Virus record (IMG/VR): IMGVR_UViG_2651869748_000011
Length of the DNA: 15,748 nucleotides
DNA from: a virus
Lineage: Duplodnaviria > Heunggongvirae > Uroviricota > Caudoviricetes
Reading direction: 5' to 3' (one strand)
Position 1 is the first letter of the stretch. Every line of letters begins with the position of its first letter. The notes under the pieces were generated by a model. It was not told the origin of the DNA, did no database searches, and saw only the letters and a list, made by a program, of their open reading frames with translations. Positions 3,698 to 15,748 of the stretch are shown piece after piece. Both the position numbers and the translations under genes were made by a program.

Positions 3698-3988
3698 TCA
3701 TCTTTTAACTCCATATACCGCCAATACCCGTTTCATCGCGGCACTCTGGCGACACTCCTTAAAAATCAGGTTCGTGCTCATCTTTCCTTCCCGTTCTTCC
3801 CTGGTAGCAAACCGGTAATACACCGTTCGCCAGACCTTACCTTCGATAACCAGAAGACCTGCCCGTGCCATTTTAGCCGCGGCCTGATTTATGCTGGTTA
3901 CTGTTGCGCCTGTTAGCGCGGCAACGTCCGGCGCACAGAAGCTATTATGCGTCCCCAGGTAATGAATAATTGCCTCTTTGCCCGTCAT
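3698..3988 (-). CDS. ren: Ren (Rex-exclusion escape protein), 96 aa
   Basis: MTGKEAIIHYLGTHNSFCAPDVAALTGATVTSINQAAAKMARAGLLVIEGKVWRTVYY... matches lambda Ren; ATG overlaps the P stop. Confidence 0.92.
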   Translation of the reverse strand: MTGKEAIIHYLGTHNSFCAPDVAALTGATVTSINQAAAKMARAGLLVIEGKVWRTVYYRFATREEREGKMSTNLIFKECRQSAAMKRVLAVYGVKR

Positions 3989-6027: not shown

Positions 6028-7383
<1,356 letters not shown>

Positions 7384-7433
7384 TCCCCACCTCAATCTCG
7401 ATAACCAAAAAACAAACTATTTTCCGTTTAAAA

Positions 7434-7502
7434 ACAATGGAGTTTGTTTTTCATGCCCCTTTTTTACAATATTTCTTGTTTACAACATACAATCTTTCTT
7501 GT
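7434..7502. promoter_or_regulatory. 434-type left operator region (OL) and PL promoter upstream of nutL and N
   Basis: 14-bp ACAA-N6-TTGT sites: ACAATATTTCTTGT (7466-7479), ACAATCTTTCTTGT (7489-7502), and a weaker candidate ACAATGGAGTTTGT (7434-7447). Confidence 0.65.
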
Positions 7503-7548
7503 AATTTTAAGCCATCAGCAGGACGCACTGACCACCATTGAAGGTGAT

Positions 7549-7578
7549 GCTCTTAAAAATTAAGCCCTGAAGAAGGGC
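7549..7578 (+). promoter_or_regulatory. nutL (boxA GCTCTTAA, boxB GCCCTGAAGAAGGGC)
   Basis: Plus-strand sequence gctcttaaaaattaagccctgaagaagggcagcattcaaagcag matches lambda nutL as recalled. Confidence 0.88.
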
Positions 7579-7736
7579 AGCATTCAAAGCAGAAGGCTTT
7601 GGGGTGTGTGATACGAAACGAAGCATTGGCCGGAAGTGCGAATCCGGATTAGCTGCAAATGAGCCAATCGTGGGGTGTTTTCGTTCAGGACTACGACTCA
7701 CACACACCACCAAAGCTAACTGACAAGAGAATCCAG

Positions 7737-8060
7737 ATGGATGCACAAACACGCCGCCGCGAACGTCGCGCAGAGAAACAGGCTCAATGGAAAGTAGCAA
7801 ATCCCCTGTTGGTTGGGGTAAGCGCAAAACCAGTTAACCGCCCTATTCTCTCGCTGAATCGCAAACCGAAATCACGAGTAGAAAGCGCACTGAATCCGAT
7901 AGACCTTACAGTGCTGGCTGAATACCACGAACAGATTGAAAGCAACCTGCAACGTATTGAGCGCAAGAATCAGCGCACATGGTACAGCAAGCCTGGCGAA
8001 CGCGGCATAACATGCAGTGGACGCCAGAAAATTAAGGGAAAATCGATTCCTCTTACCTAG
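7737..8060 (+). CDS. N: Antiterminator N, lambda type (107 aa)
   Basis: MDAQTRRRERRAEKQAQWKVANPLLVGVSAKPVNRPILSLNRKPKSRVESALNPIDLTVLAEYH... arginine-rich motif; matches lambda N; the longer 7659 start in the ORF track is disfavoured. Confidence 0.93.
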   Translation: MDAQTRRRERRAEKQAQWKVANPLLVGVSAKPVNRPILSLNRKPKSRVESALNPIDLTVLAEYHEQIESNLQRIERKNQRTWYSKPGERGITCSGRQKIKGKSIPLT

Positions 8061-8615
8061 TTACTTAGATATTGGCCTTGGCTTTATCTCAATATTATAT
8101 GGATCATAGCTGGCAACTAATTCAGTCCAGTAAATATCCTCAATAGGGAATAATATATGCTTCCCGTTCCATCGGGAAAAAGTTTTGTTCAACACACCAA
8201 GCTCAATCAACTCACTAATGTATGGGAATTGTTTTGATGTAACCACATACTTCCTGCCTTCATTAAGGGCTGCGCACAAAACCATAGATTGCTCTTCTGT
8301 AAGGTTTTGAATTACCGATCGCACTTTATCGTTTTGCATCTTAATGCGTTTTCTTAGCTTAAATCGCTTATATTTGGCGCTGGCAATAGCTGATAATCGA
8401 TGCACATTAATTGCTAGCGAAAATGCAAGAGCAAAGACGAAAACATGCCACACATGAGGAATACCGATTCTCTCATTAACATATTCAGGCCAGTTATCTG
8501 GGCTTAAAAGCAGAAGTCCAACCCAGATAACGATCATATACATGGTTCTCTCCAGAGGTTCATTACTGAACACTCGTCCGAGAATAACGAGTGGATCCAT
8601 TTCTATACTCATCAA
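8061..8615 (-). CDS. sieB: Superinfection exclusion protein SieB (membrane protein), 184 aa
   Basis: Abuts N tail-to-tail as in lambda; hydrophobic segments MYMIVIWVGLLLLSP and HVWHVFVFALAFSLAI; matches lambda SieB as recalled. Confidence 0.82.
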   Translation of the reverse strand: MMSIEMDPLVILGRVFSNEPLERTMYMIVIWVGLLLLSPDNWPEYVNERIGIPHVWHVFVFALAFSLAINVHRLSAIASAKYKRFKLRKRIKMQNDKVRSVIQNLTEEQSMVLCAALNEGRKYVVTSKQFPYISELIELGVLNKTFSRWNGKHILFPIEDIYWTELVASYDPYNIEIKPRPISK

Positions 8616-9109: not shown

Positions 9110-9436
9110 ATGACTAAAAATACTCGTTTTTCCCCTGAAGTCCGTCAACGGGCAGCCCGTATGGTTCTGGAAAGTCAGGGCGAATATGACTCACAATGGG
9201 CGACAATTTGTTCCATTGCTCCAAAGATTGGCTGTACGCCGGAGACTCTGCGTGTCTGGGTTCGCCAGCATGAGCGGGATACCGGGGGCGGTGATGGAGG
9301 GCTCACCACCGCTGAACGTCAGCGTCTGAAAGAGCTGGAGCGTGAAAATCGTGAACTGCGCCGCAGTAACGATATCCTTCGCCAGGCTTCCGCTTATTTT
9401 GCGAAGGCGGAGTTCGACCGCCTCTGGAAAAAATAA
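9110..9436 (+). CDS. IS3-family transposase OrfA (HTH/leucine-zipper part)
   Basis: [60 protein letters not shown]...; A6 run at the orfA/orfB overlap is the likely programmed -1 frameshift window. Confidence 0.9.
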
Positions 9437-10323
9437 TGCCGCTGCTGGATAAGCTGCGTGAGCAGTACGGGGTCGGACCGCTATGCAGCGAACTGCATAT
9501 TGCCCCGTCAACGTATTACCACTGTCAGCAACAGCGACATCATCCGGATAAACGCAGTGCCCGTGCGCAGCGCGATGACTGGCTGAAGAAAGAGATACAG
9601 CGCGTATACGATGAAAATCACAAGGTATACGGTGTGCGTAAAGTCTGGCGTCAGTTGTTACGGGAAGGAATCAGAGTGGCCAGATGCACTGTGGCACGTC
9701 TCATGGCGGTTATGGGACTTGCCGGTGTTCTCCGGGGTAAAAAGGTCCGCACTACCGTCAGCCGGAAAGCCGTTGCCGCATGCGACCGCGTAAACCGTCA
9801 GTTCGTGGCAGAACGTCCAGACCAGTTGTGGGTGGCTGATTTTACCTGGGTAAGCACATGGCAGGGCTTCGTTTATGTGGCGTTCATCATTGATGTGTTC
9901 GCCGGATACATCGTGGGATGGCAGGTCTCATCATCCATGGAAACAACATTCGTGCTGGATGCACTGGAGCAGGCGTTGTGGGCCCGTCGGCCGTCCGGCA
10001 CAATCCATCACAGTGATAAAGGTTCTCAGTATGTATCGCTGGCCTACACGCAGCGGCTTAAGGAAGCCGGATTACTGGCATCAACAGGGAGTACTGGCGA
10101 CTCGTATGACAACGCGATGGCGGAGAGCATCAATGGTCTTTACAAAGCGGAGGTAATACACCGTAAGAGCTGGAAAAACCGTGCAGAAGTGGAACTGGCC
10201 ACACTCACGTGGGTGGACTGGTATAACAATCGACGATTGCTGGAAAGGCTGGGCCATACTCCCCCGGCAGAAGCAGAAAAAGCTTATTATGCTTCCATCG
10301 GAAACGATGATCTGGCAGCCTGA
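9436..10323 (+). CDS. IS3-family transposase OrfB (DDE integrase-like catalytic domain)
   Basis: [15 protein letters not shown]...WVADFTWVSTWQGFVYVAFIIDVFAGYIVGW...HHSDKGSQYVS...DNAMAESINGLYKAEV; rve-type DDE domain. Confidence 0.9.
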   Translation: MPLLDKLREQYGVGPLCSELHIAPSTYYHCQQQRHHPDKRSARAQRDDWLKKEIQRVYDENHKVYGVRKVWRQLLREGIRVARCTVARLMAVMGLAGVLRGKKVRTTVSRKAVAACDRVNRQFVAERPDQLWVADFTWVSTWQGFVYVAFIIDVFAGYIVGWQVSSSMETTFVLDALEQALWARRPSGTIHHSDKGSQYVSLAYTQRLKEAGLLASTGSTGDSYDNAMAESINGLYKAEVIHRKSWKNRAEVELATLTWVDWYNNRRLLERLGHTPPAEAEKAYYASIGNDDLAA

Positions 10324-10365
10324 GTTCACAGATAAAACACTCTCCAGGAAACCCGGGGCGGTTCA

Positions 10366-10554
10366 CTGCGTGTGTGGGTTCGTCAGCATGAGCGGGATAC
10401 CGGGAGTGGTGATGGTGGACTCACCACCGCTGAACGTCAGCGTCTGAAAGAGCTGGAACGTGAAAATCGTGAACTGCGCCGCAGTAACGATATCCTTCGC
10501 CAGGCTTCCGCTTATTTTGCGAAGGCGGAGTTCGACCGCCTCTGGAAAAAATAA
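10366..10554 (+). pseudogene. 5'-truncated orfA remnant of the second IS element
   Basis: Encodes ...[60 protein letters not shown] with no native start codon or left inverted repeat. Confidence 0.8.
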
Positions 10555-11441
10555 TGCCGCTGCTGGATAAGCTGCGTGAGCAGTACGGGGTCGGACCGGT
10601 ATGCAGTGAACTGCATATTGCCCCGTCAACGTATTACCACTGTCAGCAACAGCGACATCATCCTGATAAACGCAGTGCCCGTGCTCAGCGCGATGACTGG
10701 CTGAAGAGAGAGATACAGCGCGTATACGATGAAAATCACAAGGTATACGGTGTGCGTAAAGTCTGGCGCCAGTTGTTACGCGAAGGTATCAGGGTGGCCA
10801 GATGTACAGTGGCGCGCCTCATGGCGGTTATGGGACTTGCCGGTGTTCTCCGGGGTAAAAAGGTCCGTACTACCGTCAGCCGGAAAGCCGTTTCCGCAGG
10901 CGACCGCGTAAACCGTCAGTTCGTGGCAGAACGTCCTGACCAGCTGTGGGTGGCTGATTTTACTTACGTCAGCACATGGCAGGGCTTCGTCTATGTGGCG
11001 TTCATCATTGATGTGTTTGCCGGATGTATCGTGGGGTGGCGAGTCTCATCGTCTATGGAAACGACATTCGTGCTGGATGCACTGGAGCAGGCGTTGTGGG
11101 CCCGTCGGCCGTCCGGCACAGTCCATCACAGTGATAAAGGTTCTCAGTATGTATCACTGGCCTATACGGAGCGACTAAAAGAAGCAAAACTGCTGGCATC
11201 AACAGGGAGTACAGGTGACTCGTATGACAACGCGATGGCGGAGAGCATCAATGGTCTTTACAAAGCGGAGGTAATACACCGTAAGAGCTGGAAAAACCGT
11301 GCAGAAGTGGAACTGGCCACACTCACGTGGGTGGACTGGTATAACAATCGACGATTGCTGGGAAGGCTGGGTCATATCCCTCCGGCAGAAGCAGAAAAAG
11401 CTTATTATGCTTCCATCAGAAACGATGATCTGGCAGCCTGA
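10554..11441 (+). CDS. IS3-family transposase OrfB of the truncated element (probably not expressible as OrfAB)
   Basis: 295-aa ORF about 95% identical in protein to copy-1 OrfB (e.g. FAGCIVGWRVSSS versus FAGYIVGWQVSSS). Confidence 0.8.
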   Translation: MPLLDKLREQYGVGPVCSELHIAPSTYYHCQQQRHHPDKRSARAQRDDWLKREIQRVYDENHKVYGVRKVWRQLLREGIRVARCTVARLMAVMGLAGVLRGKKVRTTVSRKAVSAGDRVNRQFVAERPDQLWVADFTYVSTWQGFVYVAFIIDVFAGCIVGWRVSSSMETTFVLDALEQALWARRPSGTVHHSDKGSQYVSLAYTERLKEAKLLASTGSTGDSYDNAMAESINGLYKAEVIHRKSWKNRAEVELATLTWVDWYNNRRLLGRLGHIPPAEAEKAYYASIRNDDLAA

Positions 11442-11713
11442 GTTCACAGATAAAACACTCTCCAGGAAAACCGGGGCGGTTCAAATAACATTGTGCGTAC
11501 TCCTCTTGAGAAGGTGAGAACTATCGGTATCGCAGACACAGTTATGCCTACGGGTCTCCCCGCATCGGTCATTCTCAAAAGGTTTAAAATAGGGTTAGGT
11601 TTGATCACTCTGAACGATCAATCGAAGACATTACGATTGGAACAAACGATCAATAGGTATGTGGTTATTTGCTAAGCTGCGACAACCTTTACAAAGACAC
11701 TCAGGAATGTTTC

Positions 11714-12022
11714 ATGCCCAAATTAGCTATTAGCTTATTACTTTACTTGGCCTGCTTTTATGCAGTTGGATATGGCGCTGGATATATAACAGGTGGAATA
11801 ACTTGGCACACACTGTATATGCTTGAACGTATAATTACCGTAGCCCTACTTGCATTCATTCCAGTGTTTATCTTTGCGGCTTTATTAAATGCATCCAAAA
11901 GACAAGGAATAATAAAATCACTTTCTGTCTCAGCGATTAATTTAATCCCTTCGGCTATCGCATTACTTATAGGATTTACTGACGCAGTGACCAGAAAGTT
12001 TCTTACTTATTTTCTCGGTTAA
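11714..12022 (+). CDS. Small hydrophobic membrane protein (102 aa, about 3 predicted TM helices), AT-rich gene
   Basis: MPKLAISLLLYLACFYAVGYGAGYITGG...ERIITVALLAFIPVFIFAALL...INLIPSAIALLIGF; SD AGGAA 9 nt upstream; its 3' end overlaps the convergent 63-aa gene by about 20 bp. Confidence 0.55.
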   Translation: MPKLAISLLLYLACFYAVGYGAGYITGGITWHTLYMLERIITVALLAFIPVFIFAALLNASKRQGIIKSLSVSAINLIPSAIALLIGFTDAVTRKFLTYFLG

Positions 12023-12194
12023 CTGACATATTGCGAATGACCAACTGTTCTATTAGCTCATTACGAGAATAAAATGGTCGGTCATTCGTAGCCGCTTTAT
12101 CCACGCCAAGCATCGACAATAGAATAGAAGTGGGAAGCCCCCGGTAACGCAGGGTCAAACGGCCTTCGGGAGTGCGTGGGTCAATCATAGCCAT
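12003..12194 (-). CDS. Hypothetical 63-aa protein, translationally linked to the upstream 161-aa gene
   Basis: ATG at 12194 sits 2 nt after the upstream TAA and is preceded by GGAG; MAMIDPRTPEGRLTLRYRGLPTSILLSMLGVDKAATNDRPFYSRNELIEQLVIRNMSVNRENK. Confidence 0.5.
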   Translation of the reverse strand: MAMIDPRTPEGRLTLRYRGLPTSILLSMLGVDKAATNDRPFYSRNELIEQLVIRNMSVNRENK

Positions 12195-12196
12195 TG

Positions 12197-12682
12197 TTAA
12201 AGTCTCCACTCACAGCGACCGACACGTAGCTCCTCAAACTCCTCTTTCGAGACGAGTTGTCCAGCCCTGTAGTGCGATACCGTGTGCTTCTTAATGAATG
12301 CCTTAGAGTCCGGCGTGATGTCGTCCGAAGATGCTACAGCGGCCTGTACGCTGGCACTGGAGGTCATAGACACAAAGGCATCCGCTACAGCTATTCCGTA
12401 CTCAAAGTCCAGCCACTCGCCAAACTTGACGGCGGACGTGGGGTCAGCAAGCCATGACGTACCGAGGCGACCCATATCAACTTTCTTTATGCGGCGGTTT
12501 TTCTGCCCCATAAGATAGCGCCCGACTTTGGTCTGAGCGAAACGCTTAACCATTGTCTTCTCGGTGTCTTCTACCTTACCAATCTGAATACCGACCCGGC
12601 GAATTTCATCCAATCGGAACAATCCGTCTTGACTGGTGAGGTCCTGACCGAAGATATGGATAGTGTATTCTTGTTGAGACAT
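12197..12682 (-). CDS. Hypothetical 161-aa protein, possibly KilA-N-like DNA-binding domain
   Basis: MSQQEYTIHIFGQDLTSQDGLFRLDEIRRVGI...GRLGTSWLADPTSAVKFGEWLD resembles the KilA-N conserved core (G-T-[WY]-x-H/A...W-L motif); strong SD AAAAGGAG upstream of the ATG at 12682. Assignment is from memory. Confidence 0.6.
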   Translation of the reverse strand: MSQQEYTIHIFGQDLTSQDGLFRLDEIRRVGIQIGKVEDTEKTMVKRFAQTKVGRYLMGQKNRRIKKVDMGRLGTSWLADPTSAVKFGEWLDFEYGIAVADAFVSMTSSASVQAAVASSDDITPDSKAFIKKHTVSHYRAGQLVSKEEFEELRVGRCEWRL

Positions 12683-12905
12683 ATCGTTGTACTCCTTTTA
12701 TCTGCATCCTGAAGCCGCATCCTGCCGCCTACTCAAAGCCCCCAACGATAGGGAGACGGCAGGCAACAAGACGCAGATAGAATGACTTTGAGATTTGATG
12801 ATTAGTGTCGGCGGTGGCACTTATTTAAAACGAAAGGACAACAGCATATTTCCGCATGACTTGACGCATCAAGGCCAGAGGCAGAAATAAGTATTTGCTC
12901 GGTGT

Positions 12906-12929
12906 CGTTCCTAAGGTGATAGTTTAGTC
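12906..12929 (-). promoter_or_regulatory. Second, weaker phage-RNAP promoter-like copy sharing the same -18 to -5 block
   Basis: Minus strand GACTAAACTATCACCTTAGGAACG; a 14-nt block (GACTAAACTATCAC) is identical to the upstream copy, but the initiation region is degenerate. Confidence 0.3.
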
Positions 12930-13447
12930 AAACAGTAATGAACTTCGGAGAACTTGACTCGAAAGTGTTCAGGACTTCCAGTGAGACCCGAAGTATGGAG
13001 ATCATATTATAGCGACCATAGTTTACTTCGGACTGACAGGACTGGAGGCTGGACTTAAAGTTCTTCTTATTGGAATTGTGATAACACAATCCATAACAAG
13101 ATAAACTCATGGTCTCCTCAAGCCTGCTGGTCAAGACTCAAAGCTCCAACCTCAGACACCACCACTGGTCTAACCTCTTTGAGTTTCCGCCTGTCCACAA
13201 ATGGATGGCAGACCTCAGCAATGATGTCTTGGTTCTTCAGTTATCCGCGCAGCGATTATCACAGAGCCAACTTAAAGTCGGATGTGGTCTTCTGCTCCCC
13301 GCCTGTCAAAAGGGAAGATAACCTACGTTAAAAGAGAATGGTCTCAGGCCAAGGTGATTTAACACTAGGCGTCTGCGGATGGTTTCCAATCGGTCCGCTA
13401 CCGGAAGCCTGAGACTATATGAATGTGTGGGTCGGTGACTTAGGGCC

Positions 13448-13470
13448 TCTCCCTATAGTGATAGTTTAGT
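13448..13470 (-). promoter_or_regulatory. T7-family single-subunit RNA polymerase promoter-like sequence (candidate), predicted start G at 13453
   Basis: Minus strand ACTAAACTATCACTATAGGGAGA; positions -8 to +6 (TCACTATAGGGAGA) are identical to the T7 consensus, while -17 to -9 differ (a different specificity region); located 18 bp downstream of the 219-aa gene stop. Confidence 0.45.
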
Positions 13471-13488
13471 CCCCCTTCCCCGTCAGCC

Positions 13489-14148
13489 CTACTCGTTAGC
13501 GGCCTGTTGCTGTTCCCTCGCTTTCCGGTCCCGGTCTTCAATGCCCTTAAGCGCCCGTTCCGGCATACTGTTAAACATGGCTTCGACTTCTTTCGGTCGA
13601 GTAATCTGCTCAGTGACAATAATGTTCAGCAGCTTAAAGAGACCATGCGCCAACTGAGGGTCGTCATCAATGTTAATTTCACCCGGATGTACCGCCTGAT
13701 TGCCAACAATACGACAGATGTCAGCAGCTCGCTGGACCAGTGGAGACAGCCCTTTAGCTACAAGGGACTTAATGTCCGTGTCGATATGCTTCCCCGGCTC
13801 ACCGAGATGGACCATCAGCTTTTGAAGACTTAAGCGCAGGAGTGCGGCAGCGCCCTTAGGTGACAGATTAATGATGCTTCTGGCTTCCATGTAGTCGGAC
13901 TTACAGTCTTCTGGCATGTCAGGATTAGGCAGCTCAACACTACCAGCCGCAGGAATCATCATATTGCCTTTATACCAATAAGCATTTTCATAGCAATGTT
14001 GACAATATGATAAGTGGAAATCAGTTTCCATATAAGTAGAATGAGGCGCAACTCCCACCATTGACCGCCAGCTTTGCTTGGAATAAACACCACAGTGCGG
14101 GCAATTAAAAGCTTTACCATCAAACACCGCCGGATAATACTCAGCCAT
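13489..14148 (-). CDS. 219-aa protein with N-terminal Zn-ribbon (CPHCG...CQHC) and a C-terminal region possibly DUF4145/HEPN-like; translationally coupled to the integrase
   Basis: [25 protein letters not shown]...[13 protein letters not shown]...; C-terminal motif [17 protein letters not shown]; its ATG (14148-14146) overlaps the integrase TGA (ATGGCTGA). Family call is tentative. Confidence 0.6.
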
Positions 14149-15748
14149 TTACTCCAGTCTCCTTATAAACATCAGCCATCACATTAACCAATCTATCTAC
14201 CTCGACTTCTTTCGCATACCTGTCATAGGTAATCGACCCTGAGCTATGACCCATAATCGCCTGAGCATACGCTAACCCGACCCCATGTTGTTTTAACTGG
14301 GTCGCCACTGTATGTCTGAATGAGTGGAACGCTAAGCCGCTACGGTCAGCGAGGACTTTAGGTAGCAACGTTCTGTTAAACCATTTGCTCACCTGCTCAC
14401 CGTAGCCGTTCTTCATCAGCTTGAGGCCATCGAATACCATAGCATTATCACCCTTAGCCTTTCTACGGTCTTCCACGAGTGACATAAAGTCAGCCAATAA
14501 AAAACCATAAGCACCATCTACCAACGGGACACAGCGGTCACTATGGGCGTTCTTGATGCTCTTACCCGGTAGGCTGCTATCGTCTTCGTTGATATGGATA
14601 TACACGGTCCCGGCCTCAGTGGTCCTGACGTCTTTGACCTGAAGCTGAGCCACCTCATTAAGTCTTGCTCCAGTGATTGCCGCCAGAGCAGTGACGTAAT
14701 AGTGGTAGGGCTTACCTGAGGTCTTCTGAGAGTACGCTTTAGCGGCGACCAGTAGTTGCCCTACCTGCTCAGGACTGAACGCATCACGAGCGTCGGAGGC
14801 TTTACGCTGCGGGACTTTCAGCTCAAGACCTTCGGTCAGGTTCTTAGCTATCAAGTCGTTGCGTACCGCCCACTTAAACACAGCAGCCATCTTGATAAGA
14901 TATTTATTGTTGATGGTAACGACATCCAAACAGTCAGTCTTAGACTCCCGGTTCAGCAGGTCAGACAGCGGCATAGACTTAAAGCGTTGCTTGCGGTTCT
15001 TCGGTATCTGCTGGAGGACTTCACGGACCCTGAGCATATCTGAACGGGTCGCCTTGCTGACATCCTGAATATCCAGATAGTCGAATATCTCGATTAACGT
15101 AGAGTGAGACGCTCGGTTCTCGCTTAGGGTCGCTGGCTTCCAGTTCTGAGCGTTCTCCTGCTCGTACTGCTCAATGAGAGACGCGAGGGTCAGTGCTTTA
15201 GGCTCGGGGACTTCAGGCTCTGCCAATACAGATAGGGAGACGGACGGTCTTAGACTGCCAGTCTCAGGCTCAAGGTAAGACAACAGGCCAGAGGTATCGC
15301 CTTTGAGTCTATCCTGACACGCTTTAAGCACACCGATAACGTCATTGATATAGCGATGCTGGTCTACAGTCAGATGCTCAGTCGCTACAGCTTCCCGAAG
15401 GTTGGACTTGATGTCATCGTACTGGTCAACGTAGAGCTGGTAGGACTCAGGGTCGTTCAGGTCATCGCGGCTGACACTAAGTTCCCACTCGACAATGGTC
15501 TTCAGGTGTTCCCGTAGCTCCTCATAAGAGGCGTTAGGGTTGTCTGCGTGGATTGCTTTAAGTGCTGACTTGATGTGCCGTGAGTGAGCCATAGCGGTAC
15601 GTCTATCCTTGGTCCGTAAAGATACTGACGCTAGTTTATAACGGTTGTGAGAAGGAAGCGAAGCGGTCAGGCGACTAGTGGTCTTCATCCTAAGACGGAT
15701 GTAAAAGACACCGTTACGCTGATAAAGGTAGGTTCTTGAATTGAGCAT
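14141..15748 (-). CDS. Tyrosine site-specific recombinase / integrase (535 aa), unrelated to lambda Int
   Basis: C-terminal catalytic residues: R in [12 protein letters not shown]-x-x-R in [10 protein letters not shown] in [11 protein letters not shown]; N-terminus [20 protein letters not shown] typical of large-N-terminus integrases; its ATG is the last 3 bases of the window. Confidence 0.85.

Follow-up and report, generated by a model that had tools for sequence, protein, structure and literature searches.

A chromosomal island of Escherichia coli with K1F-type phage promoters, structured leader RNAs and a capsid module: a probable minimal satellite of virulent T7-like phages

Phage satellites and phage-triggered islands are already known, and here we set beside them a ~6.4-kb integrative island of Escherichia coli, an incomplete copy of which occupies one end of IMG/VR virus record IMGVR_UViG_2651869748_000011 (15,748 nt, the whole of which we call the window) and which carries promoters of the kind used by the RNA polymerases of T7-like phages. 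The cf-PICIs, which are phage-inducible islands of the chromosome that form capsids and depend on temperate helpers, resemble it in being integrative islands with an HK97-fold capsid gene of their own, the rest in our case presumably coming from the helper. cf-PICIs encode every protein required for making and packaging small capsids of their own and steal only tails. They average ~14 kb (PMC10803314), whereas the E. coli island holds a scaffold-like and a capsid gene only within 6.4 kb and appears tied to virulent T7-like phages through polymerase-specific promoters. The PLEs of Vibrio cholerae, elements akin to phage-inducible chromosomal islands, are, like our proposed satellite, chromosomal parasites of a virulent phage, ICP1, and protect the host population (PMC10945586, PMC7145576), but they measure ~18 kb (PMC10803314), remodel the helper coat protein and have their own replication module. 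PICMIs, phage-inducible minimalist islands of the chromosome, share with the E. coli island a size of ~6 kb, virulent helpers and a defence gene; they occur in Vibrionaceae next to fis, have an int-alpA-prim core without capsid genes and enter helper capsids in the form of concatemers, and it is not yet understood how their early genes are switched on by the helper (PMC10803314). The E. coli island differs from them in its tRNA-Gly site, its capsid gene and its Enterobacterales hosts, and no alpA or prim was found in it.

A further likeness lies outside bacteria. The provirophage mavirus in Cafeteria is silent until the transcription machinery of the giant virus CroV recognises its virus-type promoters, and the E. 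coli island would likewise be an integrated parasite awakened by virus-type promoters, although mavirus is eukaryotic and its proteins are unrelated. To our knowledge, there is no description of such promoter mimicry between a bacterial element and a single-subunit phage polymerase, and we know of no mimicry of phage-polymerase promoters in PLEs. A full-text literature search, which covers part of the journals, returned neither an island with T7-group promoters nor a satellite that exploits T7-like phages. No description of the induction principle was found for bacteria, and the island has the look of a parasite or defence element hitherto undescribed, which would be on only during K1F-type infection.

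We listed phage promoters from the genomes of Escherichia phages K1F and EcoDS1 (genus Kayfunavirus, Studiervirinae) and compared them with two sites in the island, P1 and P2 (Table 1). P1 reads ACTAAACTATCACTATAGGGAGA on the minus strand (13470 to 13448) and is identical at 23 of 23 positions to the promoter upstream of the major capsid gene (gene 10, phi10) of both phages, or at 25 of 25 by blastn when two further upstream bases are included; its counterpart in EcoDS1, at 20819-20841, is annotated there as a promoter. P2 reads GACTAAACTATCAC from 12929 to 12916 and continues with CTTAGGAACGA to 12907. A preliminary description, made from the letters of the window, had placed promoter-like sequences at both positions, as direct reading bears out, and had called the start region of P2 degenerate. 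The latter view has to be revised: GACTAAACTATCACCTTAGG equals the K1F promoter upstream of gene 4 (primase/helicase) from -18 to +2 (20/20; near 10862-10884 of K1F), the unusual CCTTAGG included, so that CACCTTAGG is a natural variant. In both sites the specificity block is AACTAT at -13 to -8, followed by CACTATAGGGAGA, a type present at 10-11 sites in each K1F or EcoDS1 genome. BLAST with the P1 region against 50,697 phage records returned 403 genomes with similar sites, 8-10 in each, from T7-like phages and mostly those of ~39-40 kb Escherichia, Salmonella, Kayfunavirus, Citrobacter and Enterobacter podophages. The 14-mer common to P1 and P2 occurs exactly twice in the window, where 0.10 matches are expected even with two mismatches permitted. 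The Kayfunavirus promoters matched by P1 and P2 lie in phage genomes, whereas those described here lie in a chromosomal island without phage-derived surroundings. Judged by these sequence matches, we take both sites for true promoters, which the single-subunit RNA polymerase of K1F-type phages would recognise.

P1 starts 19 nt past the stop codon of the adjoining RAZR gene and is directed away from it. A scan of the leader downstream of P1 for sigma-70 promoters gave no excess above chance, which, taken with the polymerase-specific promoters, would imply helper-dependent activation. A simple scan for intrinsic terminators, which also missed the hairpin and T-run after the capsid gene of intact islands, found none above chance in the leader, and the E. 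coli leader contains no exact copy of the T7 class II pause signal ATCTGTT. A third, weak copy of the promoter motif, CATTAATCTGTCACCTAAGG (13854-13873, minus strand; 75% identical to P2), lies inside the RAZR coding sequence and is probably due to chance.

The window is part of an E. coli chromosome: its segment 11900-15748 is 100% identical to two complete genomes, and of the 5,426 complete E. coli genomes about 400 hold related versions, chromosomal in every case. Both promoters are kept in homologous E. coli islands that are only 89-91% identical overall. P1 is conserved in all close relatives, and the site orthologous to P2 is the canonical CACTATAGG in other islands; the variants met among E. 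coli islands (CTTAAC, TATAGGAAC and TGTAGG) are all also found in phage promoters. In 18 loci, the stretches within 2.6 kb downstream of the integrase gene (44.5 kb together) contain 41 copies of the exact core CACTATAGG on the sense strand, and the remaining 528 kb contain none on either strand. The predicted promoters are kept in position and orientation over 18 islands, and the motif, whose absence from homologous loci had been named beforehand as grounds for dropping the idea, is present there. A chance resemblance or non-functional sequence has the shortness of the motif in its favour and nothing more; the 25/25 match, the 0.10 expected 14-mer matches, the 41 core matches in leaders against none elsewhere and the conservation across genera refute it, and we give it a negligible probability.

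Fifteen loci from other genera were gathered through alignment of the integrase. These have one to four phage-type promoters downstream of the integrase gene, with specificity blocks that differ by genus. The island of Klebsiella pneumoniae ATCC 13883 has AATTAGGGCACACTATAGGGAGA, which we take to be the K11 consensus, together with the T7 consensus TAATACGACTCACTATAGGGAGA and two variants; matches to its promoters are found in the records of 165 Klebsiella, 165 Escherichia and 75 Yersinia phages, with 7-8 sites in each genome, the Escherichia phages being T7-type. The Proteus island has AATTAACCCACACTATAGGGAGA twice, and the promoters of Shimwellia have the same AACCCACACTATAGG block, a type used by Vibrio phages N4/ICP3 (13-15 sites per genome) and also by some Klebsiella and Enterobacter phages; at the P1 column of the leader alignment, the specificity block of Shimwellia is exchanged and the core kept. 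Citrobacter islands pair ACCCCT/ACCCT-type sites with K1F-type sites, and the islands of Lonsdalea, RIT691 and Edaphovirga have T7-like AACGACT or ACAACT types. A core confined to the leader, combined with genus-specific blocks, is what selection for recognition by local phage polymerases would be expected to produce, rather than chance or a decaying relic.

The preliminary description had offered two explanations, an infection-triggered module or satellite on the one hand and a relic of a T7-like early region on the other. The second, in the form of a phage or prophage remnant with no present function, would account for the perfect identity of the promoters, and temperate T7-like phages with integrases do exist, LUZ100 being an example (PMC10134795). 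No megablast match was found in the 50,697 phage records, however, and the segment does not align end to end with a T7-like genome: what aligns to K1F and EcoDS1 is confined to the promoters, in segments of <=25 nt. The capsid protein of intact islands is unrelated in sequence to K1F gp10 (hhalign probability of its profile 0.2%), which argues that it was not copied from the helper capsid gene. With a conserved architecture in which promoters are swapped by genus, purifying selection on the genes and covariation in the RNA, the relic is largely refuted and very improbable. The first explanation is favoured by promoter identity, conservation over 18 islands, genus-specific blocks and the setting in an integrase island with a capsid gene.

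Most relatives have a third promoter, P0, ~30 nt upstream of P1 and of a different specificity class, either AAACCCACACTATAGGGG or T3-like AACCCTCACTATAGGGG. It overlaps the RAZR stop codon, with coordinates 7585-7622 in locus L002 and 7575-7606 in L003 (both minus strand). As a BLAST query, E. coli P0 alone is too short and gave no informative matches.

The ~540 nt from P1 to P2, which contain block A, are 80-92% identical over E. coli, Citrobacter, Buttiauxella and Enterobacter, with single-base indels among relatives. The RNAalifold consensus of block A has 128 pairs, and 96.7% of pair cells are paired, versus 36-44% when the partners are slid. Compensatory changes on both sides are seen in 13 pairs, and the observed score was reached by none of 500 shuffles. 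The informative variation is concentrated in one domain (13235-13327) and few lineages, the rest being too invariant to test; block A is probably a structured RNA. Two open reading frames in this stretch were rejected as genes: one of 31 codons behind a GAGGAG site has lost its ATG in Buttiauxella and shows frameshifts and non-synonymous changes among relatives, and one of 70 aa on the plus strand (13109-13321) is ruled out by 1-nt indels. An Rfam search of 11400-15748 matched no family.

Downstream of P2 the sequence is variable until ~130 nt before the first gene, where block B is found. In the window it has a minimum free energy of -43.9 kcal/mol (z = -3.7). Nine of its 28 pairs show compensatory change, 96.8% of cells are paired versus 41-55% with partners slid, and the observed score was again reached by 0 of 500 shuffles. 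Block B is conserved out to Proteus, RIT691 and the distant islands L057 and L058, and in shape it is reminiscent of the hairpins at which RNase III processes T7 mRNAs. The covariation in both blocks indicates that they function as RNA. At the 5′ base of block B, the window has TCTATCTG (12781-12774, minus strand), which resembles the annotated EcoDS1 concatemer-junction site CTATCTGT (L022 177-184); other islands have TTCTGTTTG or TTCTGTATG at this column, after a conserved AGTC(A/T)TTCTG, so the motif is not strictly conserved.

In T7-type phages, replication origins consist of a promoter and the sequence that follows it, and in T7 the pausing of the polymerase at the concatemer junction is linked to packaging. 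The promoters of the island might accordingly serve less for expression than as DNA-level signals to the replication or packaging machinery of the helper, a proposal compatible with a satellite as well as with a defence element. Two promoter clusters ~540 nt apart and conserved across genera, a block A that is non-coding yet very conserved, the resemblance of TCTATCTG to a junction site and the failure to find a replication gene in the island would all fit such a role. The variability of the junction-like motif in other islands does not, and both the covariation, which speaks for RNA-level function, and the placement and orientation of the promoters, which suit a conserved operon with a Shine-Dalgarno site and a hairpin, tell against it. 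We regard signals of this sort as an improbable main purpose of the promoters.

The boundaries of the island are marked in loci L002, L003 and L026 by a 17-nt att direct repeat of the tRNA-Gly 3′ end, TGGAGCGGGCGAAGGGA. In RefSeq relatives, tRNA-Gly(CCC) is followed by the gene for the 535-aa integrase, a DUF4145 gene that overlaps it, ~800 bp without annotation and then genes of 161 aa, 63 aa, 102 aa (on the other strand), 163 aa and ~329 aa, next to the ETT2 locus. There is room for only seven genes in 6.4 kb. A sister element with the same layout, L027, uses a second integration site at ynfE/F. The integrase family is spread over Enterobacterales, with 96-97% identical integrases in Citrobacter, Buttiauxella and Shimwellia. 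It has a long N-terminal extension; many relatives have a precomputed match to Pfam PF20172 in the N-terminal domain, a score that the integrase of the window lacks. In L002 (3581-10017), six times 6.44 kb amounts to 38.6 kb, near the 39-40 kb of a Kayfunavirus genome. This is a numerical coincidence, of a kind of packaging arithmetic that has been reported for PICMI concatemers (PMC10803314).

The gene overlapping that of the integrase is a full-length member of the PD-T7-4/RAZR family by profile match (PADLOC PDLC04109, E = 1.7e-99, model positions 1-209 of 211; Pfam DUF4145, E = 3.4e-13). RAZR is a zinc-finger/HEPN abortive-infection RNase activated by the portal rings of T7 and T3 (PMC13017515), and PD-T7-4 is an anti-T7 defence whose gene often overlaps an integrase gene (PMC9519451), as it does here. 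Searches of the text of both papers brought up no phage-promoter cassette, leader RNAs or adjacent capsid gene (PMC13017515, PMC9519451); the words integrase, island and satellite are absent from the RAZR paper, and the promoters mentioned in the passages retrieved are the native razr and arabinose promoters (PMC13017515). In L027, an HNH (homing-type) endonuclease gene takes the place of RAZR (6770-7625) directly downstream of a K1F-type promoter, CTAAACTATCACTGTAGGGAC, which suggests that the gene in this slot would itself be expressed by the phage polymerase.

The operon behind P2 begins with a gene that the preliminary description had called KilA-N-like. Its 161-aa product has no Pfam, PHROG or PADLOC match, and the similarity to KilA-N is weak (BLASTP E = 1e-3; hhalign probability 41%), so the label stands only as a suggestion. 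The position is modular: it holds a Rha/Ant protein of 242 aa in L025 and a KilA-N protein of 252 aa in L027. At the position of the second gene, the Klebsiella and Proteus islands have a gene of 59-76 aa. The ratio of non-synonymous to synonymous substitution rates (dN/dS) is 0.11-0.14 for the 161-aa gene, 0.09-0.25 for the island genes and 0.43 for the 102-aa gene; by this measure all island genes are under purifying selection.

In intact islands the operon goes on to a 163-aa DUF6971 gene and, directly downstream of it, a gene for a 329-aa protein. The C-terminal half of the 163-aa protein is charged and coiled-coil-like, and the Klebsiella counterpart of this protein strongly matches DUF6971 (E = 1e-36); we describe it as a scaffold-like partner of the capsid protein. 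The ~329-aa protein itself found no match in Pfam, PHROG or PADLOC scans and no sequence match in the PDB. An AlphaFold2 model built from 12 close homologues reached a mean predicted local distance difference test (pLDDT) of 45. Some ~40 divergent relatives came from searching 1.84 billion representative proteins with a profile, and the model from a 34-sequence alignment reached a pLDDT of 82.6 and a predicted template-modelling score (pTM) of 0.77. Foldseek comparison of this model with the PDB gave 197 matches with E < 1e-3, the top 50 of which were all HK97-fold capsid proteins or encapsulins, with probability 1.00 to phage capsids; phi29, T5, LME-1, the T7-like phages Kp9 and PhiM1 and several encapsulins were among them. 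Comparison with BFVD gave 187 matches at the same threshold, essentially all to capsid or head proteins. On this model, the 329-aa protein is an HK97-fold major capsid protein. The top fold matches include encapsulins, and a small protein is encoded directly upstream; the context, however, is that of an integrase island with phage promoters. One remote homologue has a Big_2 domain, of a kind known from phage structural proteins. The stop codon of the capsid gene is followed directly by an 8-bp hairpin and then TTTATTTTG. Past these, and before attL, intact islands have a 27-codon hydrophobic open reading frame, MDLHKVYLVVFLLKLGLVVWLWAIRR, behind a strong ribosome-binding site, GGGAGGAGGA (L002, about 3885-3970, minus strand).

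Remote capsid homologues are found in mini-islands composed of an integrase, a long gap, a ~240-aa protein, small open reading frames, DUF6971 and the capsid gene. These distant elements have repeated promoter-like motifs of their own, L058 having six copies of AATT...CACTAATGGGAGAC. The six repeats lie in 4491-6390 of L058, as AATT-N5-6-C(A/C)CTAATGGGAGAC, in three pairs ahead of genes; L057 has two TAAACCC(C/T)GACT(A/T)TAG sites.

We think it probable, if by no wide measure certain, that virulent T7-like phages have in this island a minimal satellite that encodes a capsid, is induced through mimicry of promoters and is provided with a swappable defence slot. The case rests on mobility (the integrase, the att repeats and the 96-97% identical integrases across genera), on a capsid module behind late-type promoters and on the precedent of satellites that carry defence genes. 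The main module of the island would stay silent until a K1F-type phage infects and brings its own polymerase. From P1 this enzyme would make the conserved ~500-nt structured non-coding RNA, and from P2 the conserved hairpin, possibly a processing or stability element, with the operon: the KilA-N/Rha-type protein, the 63-aa protein and, in intact copies, the DUF6971 scaffold-like protein and the HK97 capsid protein, up to the hairpin and T-run. The helper polymerase would thus be borrowed for timing and expression, presumably along with the helper portal, terminase and tail, and the defence gene in the slot adjoining the integrase, RAZR or HNH, would be exchangeable. Whether the island is in addition the founding example of a satellite family, with ~6.4-kb elements that combine promoter arrays for local T7-like polymerases, structured RNA and a two-gene capsid module to parasitise virulent T7-like phages across Enterobacterales, we consider evenly balanced.

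Several observations weigh against a satellite. Pfam, PHROG and PADLOC scans of all island open reading frames revealed no recognisable portal, terminase, head-tail adaptor, excisionase, primase or replication initiator. cf-PICIs carry a portal, head-tail connectors, a small terminase or further packaging genes and a regulatory/replication module, none of which appeared in the same scans. No circular or virion-borne copy was seen among one IMG/VR locus and nine metagenome loci. RAZR is triggered by T7 and T3 portal rings (PMC13017515), so it might conflict with a T7-like helper unless the helper portal escapes it. The HK97 fold is also common to encapsulins and the TM-scores are modest (0.35-0.45), the capsid genes are absent from the window's own copy, and the motifs of L057 and L058 have no cognate phage in the phage collection searched. 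Transcription by the phage enzyme, excision, packaging and transfer, like the roles given to the two RNAs, are inferred. Contigs of island size that could have been free circles proved otherwise: L028 and L029 are chromosomal fragments, and L030 and L051, the latter a metagenome contig of 6,455 bp, are integrated copies with short flanks.

Some of these points would be equally at home in a dedicated anti-phage defence island that is no satellite at all, and in which the phage-polymerase promoters act as an infection sensor for an abortive or interfering module complementing RAZR. Its effectors could be, for example, a decoy capsid and scaffold that poison T7-like head assembly, the membrane protein or a regulatory RNA, and the integrase would serve ordinary island integration only. 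RAZR/PD-T7-4 is a proven anti-T7 abortive-infection gene, its slot also holds the homing-type endonuclease that lies behind a K1F-type promoter in L027, and the 102-aa membrane protein is present; the absence of packaging and replication genes from the island open reading frames, and of free or encapsidated copies from the ten loci above, is likewise what a defence island would show. Against this, a conserved scaffold-like and HK97 capsid pair under purifying selection would be an elaborate effector for pure interference, and near-identical elements in different genera with precise, att-bounded mobility suggest efficient horizontal transfer. Known satellites, moreover, also carry defence genes in hotspots (PMC9122126, PMC10803314). 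A purely defensive island is the main alternative, which we hold to be rather unlikely while taking it seriously.

The copy in the window retains the integrase, RAZR, P1, block A, P2, block B and the 161-aa, 63-aa and 102-aa genes (Table 1), and lacks both the 163-aa DUF6971 gene and the 329-aa capsid gene of intact islands. Positions 11481-12100 correspond to L001 13582-14201, and 10366-11486 are IS3 sequence. Having lost the capsid module to IS3, and P0 as well, it is a decaying member of its kind. Two IS3-family copies stand in tandem at 9110-11486 (orfA/orfB at 9110-10323 and about 10228-11441), the right-hand one breaking the island within the DUF6971 gene; the otherwise identical strain Res13-Lact-PEA14-20 (L001) has a single IS3 between the capsid and DUF6971 genes. 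A lambdoid N antiterminator gene (7659-8060, plus strand) and a lambdoid SieB superinfection exclusion gene (8061-8615, minus strand) lie left of the two IS3 copies. The equivalent stretch of L001 has no lambdoid genes, which points to an IS-mediated rearrangement in the strain of the window.

Table 1. Island features in the window, with positions counted from its first letter
Feature	Positions	Strand	Remarks
DUF6971 gene remnant	11481..11491	minus	last ~11 nt; island cut by IS3
102-aa predicted membrane protein	11714..12022	plus	three hydrophobic segments; annotated CDS in relatives; dN/dS 0.43
63-aa gene	12003..12194	minus	second of operon; annotated CDS in RefSeq relatives; dN/dS 0.15
161-aa gene	12197..12682	minus	first of operon; position of Rha/KilA-N-type DNA-binding proteins in other islands
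Block B	12700..12778	minus	long irregular RNA hairpin (predicted), ends just before Shine-Dalgarno site of first gene
P2	12907..12929	minus	second K1F-type promoter, CACCTTAGG variant as at phage gene 4 promoter, by sequence match
Block A	12930..13447	minus	~500-nt conserved non-coding leader downstream of P1
P1	13448..13470	minus	Kayfunavirus (K1F-type) phage RNA polymerase promoter, -17 to +6, class III / phi10 type, by sequence match
P0 remnant	13471..13494	minus	degenerate GAGTAGGGCTGACGGGGAAGGGGG in window; third promoter in relatives
RAZR / PD-T7-4	13489..14148	minus	Zn-finger + DUF4145/HEPN; variable slot of island
Tyrosine integrase, 535 aa	14141..15748	minus	Pfam Phage_integrase; adjoins tRNA-Gly(CCC)

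T7-like phages are textbook virulent phages and major candidates for therapy, and in the literature searched there is no natural host element that exploits the specificity of their polymerases. If the reading of the island as a satellite is true, a chromosomal element senses a specific virus by carrying that virus's promoters, which would be a prokaryotic counterpart of provirophage logic and would answer, for this island family, how satellites of virulent phages switch on. It would also be perhaps the smallest capsid-encoding satellite, defining a minimal gene set, and would give RAZR, hitherto studied by itself, a setting within a mobile anti-T7 element. Two conserved RNAs come to light as well, and gene circuits triggered by phages could draw natural parts from the element. 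Finally, the promoter arrays would be a readable record of the phage polymerase classes met by each strain, and from arrays in bacterial genomes it could be predicted to which T7-like genera a bacterium is exposed or susceptible.

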